This document shows, piece by piece, positions 34,496 through 39,327 of a stretch of DNA of 64,000 bases. The notes beneath the pieces were generated by a model. That model was not told where the DNA came from. It worked only from the letters and a program-made list of their open reading frames with translations, and searched no databases. Source of the stretch: a virus; IMG/VR virus record IMGVR_UViG_3300023174_000002, positions 35,209-99,208 of that record; one strand, given 5' to 3'. A program made the position numbers and the translations under genes. Position 1 is the stretch's first letter, and every line of letters begins with the position of its first letter.

Positions 34496-35785
34496 CTAGA
34501 TAGTGTAGGTATAGAGTGCATAGCGAAGTGCATCAGCCATGTGAGAGTATTCATCATGCACAGGACGTTCACGTTGCAGTCCTTCGCGACTATCCCAACG
34601 ATATTGATCCATTACATTGAGTACATTTGTACAGTGCGGAGCAATTTTTAATCGGTTAGTTTCTACTAAGGTTTGTACATAGGCAATACCAGGTAGTACG
34701 TCTTTTTTAGCTTTAGTGGTGGAGATATTATAAGTATAGGCAAGGTCACTAGCAAACTGTGCAGCTGCACTGTCAATAAATACTACCTCTACACCCCAGC
34801 GTTCATTTAGTTCACGAAAGTGTTCTGCGTGTTTGTCTGTGGTTTGTTCACTTTTTAAATATTCATCAACCACATGAAACTGGTCACTAACAGGATTATA
34901 ACTAATAACCACGAAAGCAGTAGCATCACGATAGCCGGGATCGCAGCCAGCAATATATTCGCATCCTTCTTGGTGAACATACTCACTAACTCCTACTTCA
35001 CGACTAAAATTATATACCTGACCCTCAAACACATTAAAGCTAGCCAAGTATTCTTGTTCAAACTCAGCTTTTGACATGGACTTGCGTGCTTCTGCTACAT
35101 CCGACTCCGACATGCGGGCGTTTTCAGTATAGTCTGCTTGGATACTACACCACTCAGGATAGTCATTGCTATATCCACGTTGATAAAACTTTGAAAACCA
35201 ATTTTGTTGACCGCGGGGTGTGGAGATGAAAATAGCCTTTGAATTAGGTCGGTCTAGTGTAGGACGCAATTGCACGTTAAATGCCGATTCACCGTCATCG
35301 CCTAGTGCAGCTTCGTCGAATAGAATAATTTGATAACTACGTCCAACTGTGCTGTCCACTGTGCTTAACGAACCCATCCTAATGGTTGAACCATTTGACA
35401 ACTCTACAACTTTGTCCTTTAGGTTATCACGCTCTACTTCTAGGTCAAAGTGCCTGATAAACTTACGCTGCAGTTCAAATGAAATCGAACTCAAGTTATA
35501 GTTAGGCGATATAATCAGCACATTGCAACCTGGAACTAGTGATACCAGCTGTGCAATAATATTAGCAATATAAGTTTTGCCTAAACGTCTAGCTAATGCG
35601 GCACAAACAAACCTGTACTTAGGATTGTTAATGGCATTAATAAGTGCAATCTGTGGACGATTCATGGTGTCCCAGGCACCTAACAACTTTAAGTAGTTTT
35701 CAATCGGCAGTTTAATAAATCTGGTTTCTACAGCAAACTCAGTAATTTCATCGCGGTCTACATCGTCTCGGCTAACTTTAAGCAC
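34496..35785 (-). CDS. terL: Terminase large subunit
   Basis: Walker A RRLGKT, Walker B ILFDEAA, ISTPRG coupling motif, RNase H D..D..HMADALRY. Confidence 0.96.
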   Translation of the reverse strand: MLKVSRDDVDRDEITEFAVETRFIKLPIENYLKLLGAWDTMNRPQIALINAINNPKYRFVCAALARRLGKTYIANIIAQLVSLVPGCNVLIISPNYNLSSISFELQRKFIRHFDLEVERDNLKDKVVELSNGSTIRMGSLSTVDSTVGRSYQIILFDEAALGDDGESAFNVQLRPTLDRPNSKAIFISTPRGQQNWFSKFYQRGYSNDYPEWCSIQADYTENARMSESDVAEARKSMSKAEFEQEYLASFNVFEGQVYNFSREVGVSEYVHQEGCEYIAGCDPGYRDATAFVVISYNPVSDQFHVVDEYLKSEQTTDKHAEHFRELNERWGVEVVFIDSAAAQFASDLAYTYNISTTKAKKDVLPGIAYVQTLVETNRLKIAPHCTNVLNVMDQYRWDSREGLQRERPVHDEYSHMADALRYALYTYTI

Positions 35786-36065
35786 TATTTTCCCCGTTTA
35801 TCTTTTTACCAGCTTCTATGCGCTCTAGTTCAATTAATTTACCACGTAGTTGTAGCACAGTATTTACTTTTTCGTTTAATCTGATCAAGTCGTTGTCTAG
35901 GACACGTACACGATCAATTAAGTTAATTAAAATATTAGTAGCTTTACTTATAGTAGGTTTTATGTCACTAACTACCCAGTTCCAGACATAGTAAATAAAA
36001 TAGCCCATACCTAAGGCAGCTAATACAGGAAACCCATAACGGTTTATAATTTCTACTGAATCCAT
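35778..36065 (-). CDS. Membrane protein, paralogue of adjacent gene (holin-like candidate)
   Basis: YGFPVLAALGMGYFIYYVW transmembrane helix plus coiled coil. Confidence 0.5.
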   Translation of the reverse strand: MDSVEIINRYGFPVLAALGMGYFIYYVWNWVVSDIKPTISKATNILINLIDRVRVLDNDLIRLNEKVNTVLQLRGKLIELERIEAGKKINGENSA

Positions 36066-36340
36066 TAGTCTTTCCTTAAATCTTTTAGCTCACTACGAGC
36101 CATTCTGGTAAAGTCTGGACTCAAACCTAGTGCATAGCTTACTCTAGTATCAATACGCTCTAGCTGAGCTGTCATGGTGTCTATTCTGGCGTCTAGGCTT
36201 TGTGTAATTTGTGCAAGATTGTGTACTCCGCTGGTTACTCCAGCCAAGATAAACTTTAGTGTTAAAAATACAAAATAACCTGCGCTAATGGCCGCAGCAA
36301 TTGGGAATCCTACTTCACCTATTAATTTTACTACGTCCAT
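36065..36340 (-). CDS. Membrane protein (holin-like candidate)
   Basis: VGFPIAAAISAGYFVFL transmembrane helix plus coiled coil; ATG 36340 with AAGGAG. Confidence 0.5.
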   Translation of the reverse strand: MDVVKLIGEVGFPIAAAISAGYFVFLTLKFILAGVTSGVHNLAQITQSLDARIDTMTAQLERIDTRVSYALGLSPDFTRMARSELKDLRKD

Positions 36341-36350
36341 TATAGACTCC

Positions 36351-36833
36351 TTATAGTTTATCGCCAAGGAGCTTTGAAATCAATGCTCCATACTTGGTTC
36401 CATCACCACCTTCGTTGATTTGCACATTTACTTGCGATTTAGGTCCAGCGCGTTCTGCACGCAGCTTTTCCAGCTGAATTTCACGGTCTAACAATTCCAT
36501 GGACATTTTATGTGATAGTGCTAAGAGTTCAGCAATGTCCTTATTCGACCCAACGTCCGCCTCTTCCATCTCACGAAACTTGCGCTTGAGTACGGCGTCC
36601 ATAGCAGCACGCATTTTAAAGCGATTGTTAAACCCTAGGTCAAAGAATACTTGGTTAATATAGGCTTTGACTTCACGGCGGCCTAAGATGTTACTAACAC
36701 TTTCTACTGGCATTGCTAGATTATCCGCCACAGCGCGTGCGTCTTGGCACTGCAAGTAGCAGTTAGCCACTTCCAGCGCTTCTGGTGATATGTTAAGTAC
36801 CTCGGCAGGTGCTGTGGTTGGGGTCAGGTTCAT
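36351..36833 (-). CDS. terS: Terminase small subunit (T5-like)
   Basis: ISPEALEVANCYL, SNKDIAELL, QVNVQIN...YGALISKL match the T5 small terminase family. Confidence 0.8.
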   Translation of the reverse strand: MNLTPTTAPAEVLNISPEALEVANCYLQCQDARAVADNLAMPVESVSNILGRREVKAYINQVFFDLGFNNRFKMRAAMDAVLKRKFREMEEADVGSNKDIAELLALSHKMSMELLDREIQLEKLRAERAGPKSQVNVQINEGGDGTKYGALISKLLGDKL

Positions 36834-37150
36834 TTCTTTAACTTTTCTTCTAGGATAACAATACGCTCACGATTAACGTGAATTAGTTCACGATTAGCTA
36901 AAATTTCACGCTCTAAGTCCTGACGCAGCTTTTCACAAGCCAGCTCAGCACCGGTATTAGTAGCCTGCTTATTATCGCTGGTAACTACTAGGCTAATCTT
37001 TGAATTCAACACCGTAACATCGTGTTGCAAGTTTTGCAGCGCAGTCATTAAGTAGACTACGCAGGTGAATAGTAGTGGTAACAAGGCAAAGGTAAGTTTT
37101 TCGATTAGCTGGCCTTTGGCGTGTGCTTCGTCTAGTTTTTCTTGCGACAT
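36830..37150 (-). CDS. Membrane-anchored coiled-coil protein
   Basis: One transmembrane helix then heptad repeats. Confidence 0.45.
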   Translation of the reverse strand: MSQEKLDEAHAKGQLIEKLTFALLPLLFTCVVYLMTALQNLQHDVTVLNSKISLVVTSDNKQATNTGAELACEKLRQDLEREILANRELIHVNRERIVILEEKLKK

Positions 37151-38148
37151 TATATTCTCCCTACTAAATTATACTCAAATATCTGCCAACACTTTTCCCA
37201 AGACCAGCGATAGCTATTTACTACCACCGTACGTCTGGGAATTGCCAGTGCTTGTACTACTGCCAGTTTCAAGTCAGCACTAACAGCACCAGTACGACCA
37301 CATTCAATTACGTCTTTGGGACCACAAACTGGATAACCAGCAACTGGTGTGCCACAGGCCATAGCCTCAATCATTACTATACCAAAAGTATCCCAACGGC
37401 TGGTAAAGACCAAGCAGTCTGCGGTACGGTAGTAATTAGCCAGTTCTTCGCCGGTTTTCATACCCACAAATTCCACCTCAGGGTATTTACTAGCCAAATA
37501 CTTTAATTGCGGCCCATTGCCTACCACAATCTTTTTGGCACCCAAATAGTCTAGTTTGCAAAAGTCTTCGCAGTTCTTTTCCGGCGCTACTCTACCAACC
37601 CATAACAGTGTAGGCATGCTTTGCTCACTGCCTAAACCACCGTAAAACTGCTGGCGGTCTACACCTCGGGTCCAGGGTACAATATCGCCCAAAAAGCCCT
37701 GCTGTTTAAGTTCACCGACCATACTAGCCGTAGTAGTTAACACCTTGCCCGAATGCTTGTGAAACCAACGCAAGTACCGGTAAGTCCAGCTGGTGGGAAT
37801 TTTATAGTATTTATTCAAGGCTTCTGGGATCTTGGTATGGTAGCTGGTGTTATACCGCCAGCCATGTTTGTCCATCCAGCAGCGTGCTGCTAAACCTAGT
37901 GGACCCTCAGTTGCAATATGCACATAATCAGGGTTTACCGCCGCCAGCTTTTCGCCAATGCCTTGAGGCCACGATAGCCTAATATCCCCATAACCAGGAG
38001 CACCACAATTAGGGAACTGCCGGGGATCACAATATACAAACTCATAGCCAGCGCGATCTGCTTGTAGTTCCAAGTTGTGAAACGTTGTAACCACTCCGTT
38101 AACTTGTTGGGGGACATTATCTGTGATTACTAAGATTGTTTTTGACAT
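37150..38148 (-). CDS. agt: GT4 glycosyltransferase, Agt-like (glycosyl-diacylglycerol synthase)
   Basis: PQQVNGVV, HIATEGPLGLAAR, TSYHT, WTRGVD, VGRVAPEKN, DTFGIVMIEAMACGTPV; next to a plcP-like gene as in bacteria. Confidence 0.75.
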   Translation of the reverse strand: MSKTILVITDNVPQQVNGVVTTFHNLELQADRAGYEFVYCDPRQFPNCGAPGYGDIRLSWPQGIGEKLAAVNPDYVHIATEGPLGLAARCWMDKHGWRYNTSYHTKIPEALNKYYKIPTSWTYRYLRWFHKHSGKVLTTTASMVGELKQQGFLGDIVPWTRGVDRQQFYGGLGSEQSMPTLLWVGRVAPEKNCEDFCKLDYLGAKKIVVGNGPQLKYLASKYPEVEFVGMKTGEELANYYRTADCLVFTSRWDTFGIVMIEAMACGTPVAGYPVCGPKDVIECGRTGAVSADLKLAVVQALAIPRRTVVVNSYRWSWEKCWQIFEYNLVGRI

Positions 38149-38303
38149 TGTGAAACTACCTTGAATTGTGGAAATTTAAGTTGATACTGTATGGTACGTT
38201 GTGCAGCCAAACATTCTTGTTCTGTGTAAAACTCTAAGGTTACACGGCCCGGTACATCCTTAGGGTCCTGTGTGTGCACTGCTAGGATTATTAACAACCA
38301 CAT
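38130..38303 (-). CDS. Small secreted/membrane protein
   Basis: MWLLIILAV signal-like start, F.TEQECLAA motif; overlaps both neighbours. Confidence 0.5.
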   Translation of the reverse strand: MWLLIILAVHTQDPKDVPGRVTLEFYTEQECLAAQRTIQYQLKFPQFKVVSQCQKQS

Positions 38304-39045
38304 CTTTAGGCCTCCACTCCACAATTTCCCAGTAACCATTTGTGTGTTCTACTAGTGCAGTACACGACTCTACCCAATCACCCGAATTCATATAACCTAC
38401 ACCATCTACCACTTTAATCTCAGCTTGATGAATATGGCCACAGATTACACCATCAAACTTGCGTTTTTCAGCATATTGGGTAATAGTTTGTTCAAATTTG
38501 AAAATAAAGTCTACTGCACGCTTTACTTTATGCTTTAACCACTGTGATAGCGACCAGTAACCAAAGCCTAGGCGATGTCGTAACTGGTTAAAGTTAGTAT
38601 TTAAGCCTAGGACAAAATCATAAGCACTGTCTCCCAACCAAGCTAACCAGGGAGCTAGTCTGGTAATGCCATCAAACATATCGCCGTGTGTGACTAACCA
38701 ACGACGATTGTGGTGGTCTACATAAGTGCACTGATTTACCACCTCTATACGACCAAATTGCAGTCCATAGGTAATTAGTGGCCTGAGAAACTCGTCGTGA
38801 TTGCCTGCCACGTAAACCACACGGGTCTTTTCACGATTAGCTTTTGCTAAAACATGGCGGATTACATTAGTATGTGAGTTTGCCCAACGCAGTTTATTCT
38901 GCTTGACCTTCCAACCATCAATAATATCGCCTACTAAGTACAGCTCGTCGCAGGTGTTGGATTTTAGGAATTGTGACAAGTACTCGGCTTTACTAGCTTT
39001 AGTACCCAAGTGCACGTCCGAGATAAAAATCGCCCTGTAGTGCAT
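38260..39045 (-). CDS. plcP: PlcP-like metallophosphoesterase (phospholipase C; LpxH2 family)
   Basis: SDVHLG, GDIIDGW, GNHD (His, not the Arg of LpxH), THGD.FD, YWSLS, CGHIH, GDWVESCTA; GGAGG RBS. Confidence 0.78.
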   Translation of the reverse strand: MHYRAIFISDVHLGTKASKAEYLSQFLKSNTCDELYLVGDIIDGWKVKQNKLRWANSHTNVIRHVLAKANREKTRVVYVAGNHDEFLRPLITYGLQFGRIEVVNQCTYVDHHNRRWLVTHGDMFDGITRLAPWLAWLGDSAYDFVLGLNTNFNQLRHRLGFGYWSLSQWLKHKVKRAVDFIFKFEQTITQYAEKRKFDGVICGHIHQAEIKVVDGVGYMNSGDWVESCTALVEHTNGYWEIVEWRPKDVVVNNPSSAHTGP

Positions 39046-39067
39046 ATATCCTCCAGTAATTTTCTAG

Positions 39068-39097
39068 ATTATATCACCTTAGGCACCTAAAAGTCAA
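39068..39097 (-). promoter_or_regulatory. sigma70 promoter for plcP-agt/late operon
   Basis: Minus strand TTGACT-18bp-TATAAT. Confidence 0.75.
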
Positions 39098-39177
39098 CAT
39101 AAATTTTTCAGCGCTGGTAAAAATATTCTTGAAATTTGTGGCTAATTGGTGTATAATAGTATTTTTTGGGGATATTT

Positions 39178-39327
39178 ATGTGGCGACTGTGGGCGAAAGC
39201 ATTAGGCGATAAGTATGGTTTAACGGATCGTGAGGCTGACGTAGTTTGCTGGATTAGAACTGCAATTGTGTTGTGCTATCTATTAACAAATTTGGTGATT
39301 GTGTTGGGCGTTGTACACCACTGGTAG
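39178..39327 (+). CDS. Small conserved phage membrane protein (49 aa)
   Basis: Not in the ORF track. MWRLWAKALG...EAD...IRT...HW family seen in aquatic phages; own promoter TTGAAA(39129)-17-TATAAT(39152). Confidence 0.7.
   Translation: MWRLWAKALGDKYGLTDREADVVCWIRTAIVLCYLLTNLVIVLGVVHHW

Follow-up and report, generated by a model that had tools for sequence, protein, structure and literature searches.

A T5-like phage genome carries a predicted PlcP-Agt cassette for phospholipid-to-glycolipid remodelling

The window analysed here is a 64,000-nucleotide stretch (positions 35,209 to 99,208) of the IMG/VR record IMGVR_UViG_3300023174_000002, a complete T5-like phage genome of 99 kb with terminal repeats. 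On the minus strand, just upstream of TerS and TerL, we found the following features:

39068..39097, minus strand: near-consensus sigma-70-type promoter with a TG extended -10
38260..39045, minus strand: plcP-type metallophosphoesterase, 261 aa, predicted Mn-dependent phospholipase C cleaving PE/PG to diacylglycerol plus the phospho-head group
38130..38303, minus strand: small protein of 57 aa, function unknown
37150..38148, minus strand: agt-type GT4 glycosyltransferase, 332 aa, predicted UDP-sugar:diacylglycerol glycosyltransferase making glucosyl- and/or glucuronosyl-DAG
36830..37150, minus strand: protein of 106 aa with a transmembrane segment and a coiled coil, function unknown

The promoter reads TTGACT-N18-TATAAT (11 of 12 matches) and lies 22 nt upstream of the plcP start codon, with a GGAGG Shine-Dalgarno sequence in between. 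The -35, the TG and the -10 are conserved in two relatives (L056 and L057), while the spacer varies. In agreement with the sequence-only reading, which had reported the phosphoesterase, the 57-aa ORF, the GT4, the promoter and the lack of a Pho box, there is no match to CTGTCAT-N4-CTGTCAT at 3 or fewer mismatches near the cassette, and the whole window has 3 such matches against 5 expected by chance. The best match upstream of plcP has 5 mismatches, which is background level. However, scanning with the E. coli consensus discriminates poorly, since the P. aeruginosa positive control also scores only 4 mismatches, and the absence is therefore soft evidence.

The sequence-only reading had placed the module at the head of the late operon, where T5 keeps its receptor-binding and receptor-blocking genes. 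It is right about T5 itself, in which oad (pb5) lies directly upstream of TerS and llp is divergent from it. The cassette is, however, not a fixed head of the late operon but a variable insert at the early/late divergent junction. A close relative (L181) with 93-94% identical TerS is collinear on both sides, yet lacks window positions 36840-39100. About 30 relatives with 65-74% identical TerS lack the cassette, and two further relatives (L205 and L207) carry plcP between TerS and TerL instead. The 106-aa protein belongs to the same insertion/deletion block but varies independently, as it is absent together with the cassette from L181 and is also absent from L055 and L180, relatives which keep plcP, the small ORF and agt. 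It gave no family hit and is not a paralogue of the two phrog_18771 ORFs.

The phosphoesterase matches Pfam Metallophos with an E-value of 8e-13. The metal-binding motifs of the calcineurin-like fold are intact (SDVHLG, VGDIIDG, GNHDEF, THGD and GHIH) and align with those of the validated PlcPs, and the motifs YWSLS and GDWVESCTAL are present as well. In a phylogenetic tree, the protein is nested between the validated PlcPs of S. meliloti and P. aeruginosa, with 54% identity to P. aeruginosa PA3219 and 45% identity to the S. meliloti SMc00171 orthologue. True LpxH of E. coli and Limnohabitans is separated by a 100%-supported branch of about 5.4 substitutions per site. The P. aeruginosa reference locus is azoR3...plcP-GT-cyaB, corresponding to PA3219-PA3218-PA3217 (PMC8528852), whereas the S. 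meliloti locus lies next to the LuxR-type regulator and AHL synthase genes, which appears to be the neighbourhood of SMc00171. A sequence search against the PDB gave no hit at E 0.001 or below, not even to LpxH structures.

The glycosyltransferase matches Pfam Glycos_transf_1 and Glyco_transf_4 and contains HIATEGPLG, TSYHT and WTRGVD. In the characterised Agt of SAR11 (GTcp), the catalytic dyad His104-Asp256 and the DAG-binding residues Thr162, Arg163 and Trp320 have been shown to be essential (PMC8231724). By motif position, though not by direct alignment to GTcp, these correspond to H104, D253, T160, R161 and W317 of the phage protein. H104 is invariant in 100 homologues and W317 is 97% or more conserved. 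The UDP-sugar motifs GRVAxEKN and FPSxTDTFG correspond to GRVAPEKN at 185-192 and FTSRWDTFG at 248-256. The protein is 40% identical over 323 aa to P. aeruginosa Agt1, which makes MGDG in E. coli (PMC8528852); this is well above the under-25% seen between this clade and other GT4 enzymes. The best PDB relatives reach only E 2.5e-12 and cover the C-terminal half.

For the small ORF the longest frame is 69 aa (38130-38339), but the start with a Shine-Dalgarno sequence, GGAGG 7 nt upstream, is the ATG at 38303, which gives 57 aa. It overlaps the plcP 3' end by 44 nt and the GT4 5' end by 19 nt, which suggests translational coupling. The ORF is real. Start and Shine-Dalgarno are conserved in 24 distinct phage homologues, which share two invariant Cys. 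It was found only in phage loci, with no tblastn hit in any of the bacterial plcP-agt loci examined. An AF2 model predicts a beta-beta-alpha-beta fold with pLDDT 93, in which the hydrophobic N-terminus forms a core beta-strand. No meaningful Foldseek match in the PDB was obtained (best E 2.1), there was no Pfam, PHROG, NCBIfam or PADLOC hit, and the nearest Atlas clusters are viral hypotheticals. The overlapping small ORF after plcP of Pelagibacter phage Mosig is unrelated. The protein probably assists the two enzymes, possibly as an accessory subunit.

The gene order plcP then agt is that of the bacterial lipid-renovation pathway, known from S. meliloti (SMc00171), Phaeobacter MED193, P. aeruginosa (PA3219/PA3218), B. 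cenocepacia (BCAL2364/2365) and SAR11 (GTcp). We found plcP directly followed by this GT4 in 34 of 47 named bacterial loci and in 21-24 of 40 unnamed ones (55-58 of 87 in total), and the layout also matches the B. cenocepacia plcP-agt-dagK operon (PMC13691135). In contrast to these bacterial systems, the phage locus has no dagK, is driven by a consensus sigma-70 promoter rather than a Pho box, and has the 57-aa gene wedged between the two enzymes. The phage copies form their own clade in the PlcP tree, and the GT4 tree mirrors it. However, the viral loci were collected by similarity to the query, so that viral monophyly is partly built in, and the trees were made by a quick method with a single-matrix model.

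The cassette is not restricted to this phage. At least 196 IMG/VR contigs from unrelated phage types carry a relative, including two records of 343-345 kb that CheckV rates 99% complete, each with a terminase gene. The 65-71% identical database proteins lie on contigs of 190-356 kb, the context of which was checked only through IMG/VR records. No near-identical DNA was found in GenBank phages, and only four isolated or deposited phage genomes hold a protein homologue, namely Mosig, S-SRM01 (two records), a faecal contig and one uncultured 595-kb phage. All three genes are under purifying selection within the phage lineage, with dN/dS of 0.07-0.10 for plcP, 0.08-0.25 for the non-overlapping part of the small ORF and 0.11-0.19 for agt. 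Host-derived metabolic genes inside a bona fide phage genome, variably present among close relatives and under selection, are what is expected of a phage auxiliary metabolic cassette.

Interestingly, pstS lies within the fetched flank in 12 other viral loci, often adjacent to the cassette, and also in Mosig. Moreover, Pho-box-like repeats scored at 3 or fewer mismatches upstream of plcP in 10 of 64 other phage loci, mostly 49-68 nt from the start codon, while random windows scored that well in 12 of 400. The phage studied here has phoH, but it has no Pho box and no pstS, so its own link to phosphorus stress is by homology only.

Based on these data, we propose with moderate confidence that the cassette copies the bacterial PlcP-Agt pathway in order to supply phosphorus, as the sequence-only reading had inferred. 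PlcP, a cytoplasmic metallophosphoesterase, would cut the phospho-head group off inner-membrane phospholipids, leaving diacylglycerol and releasing glycerol-3-phosphate or phosphoethanolamine into the cytoplasm. Agt would immediately glycosylate the diacylglycerol with a UDP-sugar, so that the bilayer is refilled with phosphorus-free glycolipid and the cell stays intact until lysis, while the freed phosphorus feeds nucleotide synthesis for the phage genome. As the pair is driven by a constitutive host-type promoter, remodelling would be imposed on the host, which is unknown, whatever its phosphate status. No enzyme assay or lipid measurement exists for any phage copy, and the enzymatic activities, the expression timing and the purpose are inferred. 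PlcP releases phospho-head groups and not free phosphate, and host enzymes would be needed to finish the job. Using textbook values of about 0.65 nm2 per lipid, we estimate that 1 um2 of bilayer holds about 3 million phospholipids, which equals the phosphorus in about 15 copies of this genome. Phosphorus scavenging is the best-supported reading and gains strong indirect support from pstS next to the cassette in other phages, but it remains unproven for this phage.

It is also possible, although less likely, that the same two enzymes benefit the phage through a changed envelope, by altering receptor display, blocking superinfection, protecting the infected cell from membrane-active agents or grazers, or tuning lysis timing. 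The sequence-only reading had offered exclusion or lysis as its alternative, and nothing in our data excludes it. The cassette occupies the position of T5 oad and llp, to which it has no sequence or family relationship, it is flanked by several small membrane and coiled-coil proteins, and its promoter is constitutive with no Pho box. Glycolipids have been shown to protect P. aeruginosa from polymyxin (PMC8528852), and lipid remodelling changes susceptibility to predators and phage attachment in marine bacteria (PMC9457565, PMC9938194). On the other hand, the repeated linkage to pstS and the Pho-box-like sites in other phages point to phosphorus, PlcP acts from the cytoplasm on the inner membrane, far from outer-membrane receptors, and defence-system models (PADLOC) gave no hit. 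L181 keeps nothing in this position, so the site does not house an essential receptor function in this lineage.

Another, rather doubtful explanation is that the cassette mainly supplies carbon, energy or lipid intermediates such as glycerol-3-phosphate and diacylglycerol, or that it compensates for phage-induced arrest of host phospholipid synthesis, so that the membrane stays intact during a long latent period. In jumbo phages the cassette sits beside other lipid genes, a fatty-acid desaturase and a GT2/GT21-like transferase, which suggests a broader membrane-maintenance programme, and virocells are reported to switch between phospholipid synthesis and recycling (PMC12282109). However, this reading does not explain the linkage to pstS, it predicts no dependence on phosphorus supply, and nothing found here is specific to it.

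Public annotation names homologues of the phosphoesterase 'UDP-2,3-diacylglucosamine pyrophosphatase LpxH', which would imply an altered lipid A or LPS synthesis. LpxH belongs to the same calcineurin-like superfamily and has the same overall length, and there is a weak full-length hit to the LpxH models. Nevertheless, the scores are far below the curated equivalog cut-offs, with 46.5 bits against 134 (NF003743) and 32.7 against 190.35 (TIGR01854). The protein has GNHD, while LpxH of E. coli and Limnohabitans has GNRD with the substrate-binding Arg, and the lid region is different. Together with the position in the tree, three independent tests contradict this very unlikely identity. Moreover, Limnohabitans genomes carry both a true LpxH above the cut-off and this paralogue, and the validated PlcPs carry the same misannotation. 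Finally, a host fragment joined by misassembly or a decaying passenger gene, which might be suggested by the bacterial module architecture and by freshwater Burkholderiales as the nearest named cellular relatives, is contradicted by the complete record, the same synteny in 15 or more independent viral contigs, cellular homologues of at most 56% identity against 63-91% among phages, a GC content of 0.43-0.46 similar to that of TerS (0.46), and dN/dS far below 1.

We found no paper describing a phage PlcP, in line with the sequence-only reading, which knew of no characterised phage version. Our data expose a systematic error, since these genes are labelled as LpxH or as lipopolysaccharide biosynthesis in viral AMG surveys. 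Known phage phosphorus genes, such as pstS, phoA and phoH of cyanophages and pelagiphages, are likewise host-derived genes kept under selection in phages of nutrient-poor waters, but they raise phosphate uptake from outside the cell. The present cassette would let a phage cannibalise the phosphorus already built into the host membrane while keeping the cell intact. More tentatively, phages of phosphorus-poor lakes, from 99-kb T5-like to 345-kb jumbo phages, may share a mobile three-gene cassette in which the small protein is a phage-invented coupling or activating subunit that makes the pathway independent of host PhoB control, and which forces the host to trade membrane phospholipid for glycolipid and channels the freed phosphorus into virion DNA. 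If so, viral infection would be a direct driver of membrane-lipid composition and phosphorus recycling in freshwater plankton.

The IMG/VR virus record comprises 99,208 bp with direct terminal repeats and is rated complete; the window covers its bases 35209-99208 and has a GC content of 0.38. Its large terminase is about 49% identical to those of T5-like Vibrio phages, and the gene order TerS-TerL downstream of a divergent promoter junction matches that of T5. Around this junction we found the following features, those from the cassette promoter towards TerL on the minus strand being listed first and in their order:

39097-39068, minus strand: promoter TTGACT-N18-TATAAT, preceded by TG and followed by a GGAGG Shine-Dalgarno
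38260-39045, minus strand: metallophosphoesterase of 261 aa
start at 38303, minus strand: small ORF, preceded by a Shine-Dalgarno, which gives 57 aa
37150-38148, minus strand: GT4 glycosyltransferase of 332 aa
next on the minus strand: membrane and coiled-coil ORF of 106 aa (orf106), followed by TerS
35778-36367, minus strand: two tandem paralogous ORFs of 95 and 100 aa (phrog_18771), between TerS and TerL
39166-39327, plus strand: hydrophobic ORF of 53 aa, divergent from the cassette
39129-39157: promoter TTGAAA-17-TATAAT of the 53-aa ORF
40173-40144 and 39490-39461: leftward-pointing sigma-70 promoters

The three cassette genes overlap one another, which suggests translational coupling. The motifs named in the sequence-only reading for the phosphoesterase and the glycosyltransferase are all present, and, as that reading stated, no Pho box is seen upstream, although the consensus scan discriminates poorly. 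The two phrog_18771 ORFs carry a transmembrane segment and a coiled coil, are 26% identical to each other and give a weak hit to a holin family. The 53-aa ORF, which has no family hit, occupies the position of T5 llp. The two leftward promoters match at 12 of 12 (40173-40144) and 11 of 12 (39490-39461) positions and are located within a region whose genes run rightward.

The phosphoesterase is PlcP and not LpxH. Curated LpxH models hit the protein only far below their cut-offs, with 46.5 against 134 bits and 32.7 against 190. Moreover, Limnohabitans genomes contain a genuine LpxH above or near cut-off and, elsewhere, a second gene scoring about 40 bits, and it is this second gene that is the relative of the phage gene. 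Named, validated references were obtained from mislabelled records in a plasmid collection. A P. aeruginosa fragment carries azoR3...phosphoesterase-glycosyltransferase-cyaB, that is PA3219-PA3218-PA3217, where PA3219 is PlcP and PA3218 is Agt1, which makes MGDG in E. coli (PMC8528852). An S. meliloti chromosome carries the gene next to the LuxR-type regulator and AHL synthase, which appears to be the neighbourhood of SMc00171. Regarding these records (CP090106.1 and CP075839.1), a 3.7-Mb S. meliloti entry labelled 'plasmid pSymB' carries chromosomal genes, namely quorum-sensing-type regulator and AHL synthase genes next to plcP, and P. aeruginosa 'plasmids' of 96-167 kb carry the chromosomal PA3217-PA3223 region; these look like mislabelled or misassembled entries.

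In a maximum-likelihood tree of 141 sequences, built with a quick, single-matrix method, true LpxH from E. coli and Limnohabitans is separated from everything else by a 100%-supported branch of about 5.4 substitutions per site. The window protein sits inside the clade that holds both validated PlcPs, closest to the P. aeruginosa group. The alignment agrees with this placement, since all metal ligands are intact, the window has GNHDEF where LpxH has GNRDF, and the YWSLS and GDWVESCTAL blocks are shared with the validated enzymes.

The GT4 is Agt-type. It is 40% identical over 323 residues to P. aeruginosa Agt1, while the biochemical study of SAR11 GTcp (PMC8231724) reports under 25% identity between this clade and other GT4 enzymes. 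That study names His104, Asp256, Thr162, Arg163, Trp320 and the motifs GRVAxEKN and FPSxTDTFG as required for activity. The window protein has H104, D253, T160, R161, W317, GRVAPEKN and FTSRWDTFG, where H104 is invariant and W317 is conserved in at least 97% of 100 homologues.

The same operon is found in bacteria. In 34 of 47 named loci, mostly from Limnohabitans and Comamonadaceae MAGs, the plcP homologue is directly followed by a GT4 that is 37-45% identical, and B. cenocepacia has plcP-agt-dagK. In a sample of 401 Pseudomonadota genomes, 124 hold a homologue, none of them more than 56% identical.

In phages, IMG/VR yielded 196 confirmed contigs, of which the best 80 were kept. Fifteen are T5-like relatives with 83-91% identity and full synteny through TerL. 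The rest are 62-71% identical and include 343-345 kb records rated 99% complete, each with a terminase gene, so they are jumbo phages. The 61 viral PlcPs form one clade with 98% support and the viral GT4s form a matching clade, so the cassette moves among phages as a unit, although this monophyly is partly a product of the similarity-based, query-biased sampling. Among the T5-like relatives all three genes are under purifying selection, with dN/dS of 0.07-0.10 for plcP, 0.11-0.19 for agt and 0.08-0.25 for the non-overlapping part of the small ORF. The GC content of the cassette (0.43-0.46) is like that of TerS.

Our data further demonstrate that the cassette is accessory. Searching with TerS, we found 345 relatives. 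One of these, L181, has a 93-94% identical TerS and is collinear with the window from 42999 down to 39101, where it jumps straight to TerS at 36839 and hence lacks plcP, the small ORF, agt and orf106. The phrog_18771 ORFs are also absent from L181, where TerS abuts TerL, whereas the divergent 53-aa ORF is conserved there and, as a 79-aa version, in the T5-like relative L050. About 30 relatives with 65-74% identical TerS and enough upstream sequence lack the cassette as well. Two relatives, L238 and L243, have it in the same place, while two others, L205 and L207, carry plcP between TerS and TerL. Most T5-like relatives have an extra 56-aa ORF with a transmembrane segment and a coiled coil, translationally coupled (TAATG) to plcP (L050:5825-5995), where the window has a promoter instead. 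Only the relatives L056 and L057 share the promoter of the window, and in those two the -35, the TG and the -10 are conserved while the spacer varies.

A link to phosphorus is seen in the gene neighbourhood of other phages. In Mosig, plcP is divergent from a phosphate ABC-transporter (pstS-type) gene. In 12 non-T5 viral loci pstS lies within the fetched flank, directly upstream of plcP in the loci L129, L103 and L111 and directly downstream of agt in L107, L109, L079 and L092 (L129:4847-5890; L107:2577-3611; L079:7964-8944), and this adjacency is found in several jumbo-phage lineages. In L129, a Pho-box-like ATGTAACATTACTGTCAC lies ahead of pstS. Repeats of the TGTCAT-N4-TGTCAT type scored at 3 or fewer mismatches upstream of plcP in 10 of 64 other phage loci, mostly 49-68 nt from the start codon, while random windows scored that well in 12 of 400. 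The window phage itself has phoH but no pstS. In jumbo-phage relatives the cassette is mosaic (L069:5191-7617; L104:6743-7633; L084:6695-7381) and its other neighbours are lipid or sugar enzymes. The locus L069 has a fatty-acid desaturase upstream of plcP and a GT2/GT21-like transferase in place of the GT4, several loci have a RimK-type ATP-grasp gene inserted between plcP and agt, and L084 has a BPL_N/GATase-like gene in this position. These hint at other or further-modified lipid products.

The 57-aa protein has 24 distinct homologues, which share the start, an upstream Shine-Dalgarno and the pattern MW-hydrophobic-AVH..P.D.PGR...C...LKF..F.V...C.K. No tblastn hit appeared in any of the bacterial loci searched. 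AlphaFold2 gives a confident predicted beta-beta-alpha-beta mini-domain (pLDDT 93) in which the hydrophobic N-terminus is a core strand. No solved fold matches this model, and the nearest Atlas clusters are viral hypotheticals. The protein is dispensable in some close relatives, such as L051, L053 and L054, where plcP overlaps agt directly.

In literature searches we found no description of a phage PlcP-Agt, and a 2025 virocell study states that little is known about lipid remodelling in infected cells. A Lake Baikal viral metatranscriptome lists 'lpxH' under lipopolysaccharide biosynthesis, which may be this same misannotated family.

Overall, although the activities have not been assayed, the enzymes are with high confidence a PlcP and an Agt. 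The promoter appears to be of the class that T5 uses for early genes which, together with the lack of a Pho box, suggests that expression does not depend on host phosphate sensing. An alteration of the envelope for exclusion, protection or lysis timing remains possible, but is favoured only by the position of the cassette and by known side-effects of glycolipids. A back-of-envelope estimate from textbook lipid areas puts membrane phosphorus at the same order as the DNA phosphorus of a modest burst. The most likely purpose of the cassette, which is inferred and unproven, is to release phosphorus from host phospholipid for phage DNA synthesis, while glycolipid keeps the membrane whole.
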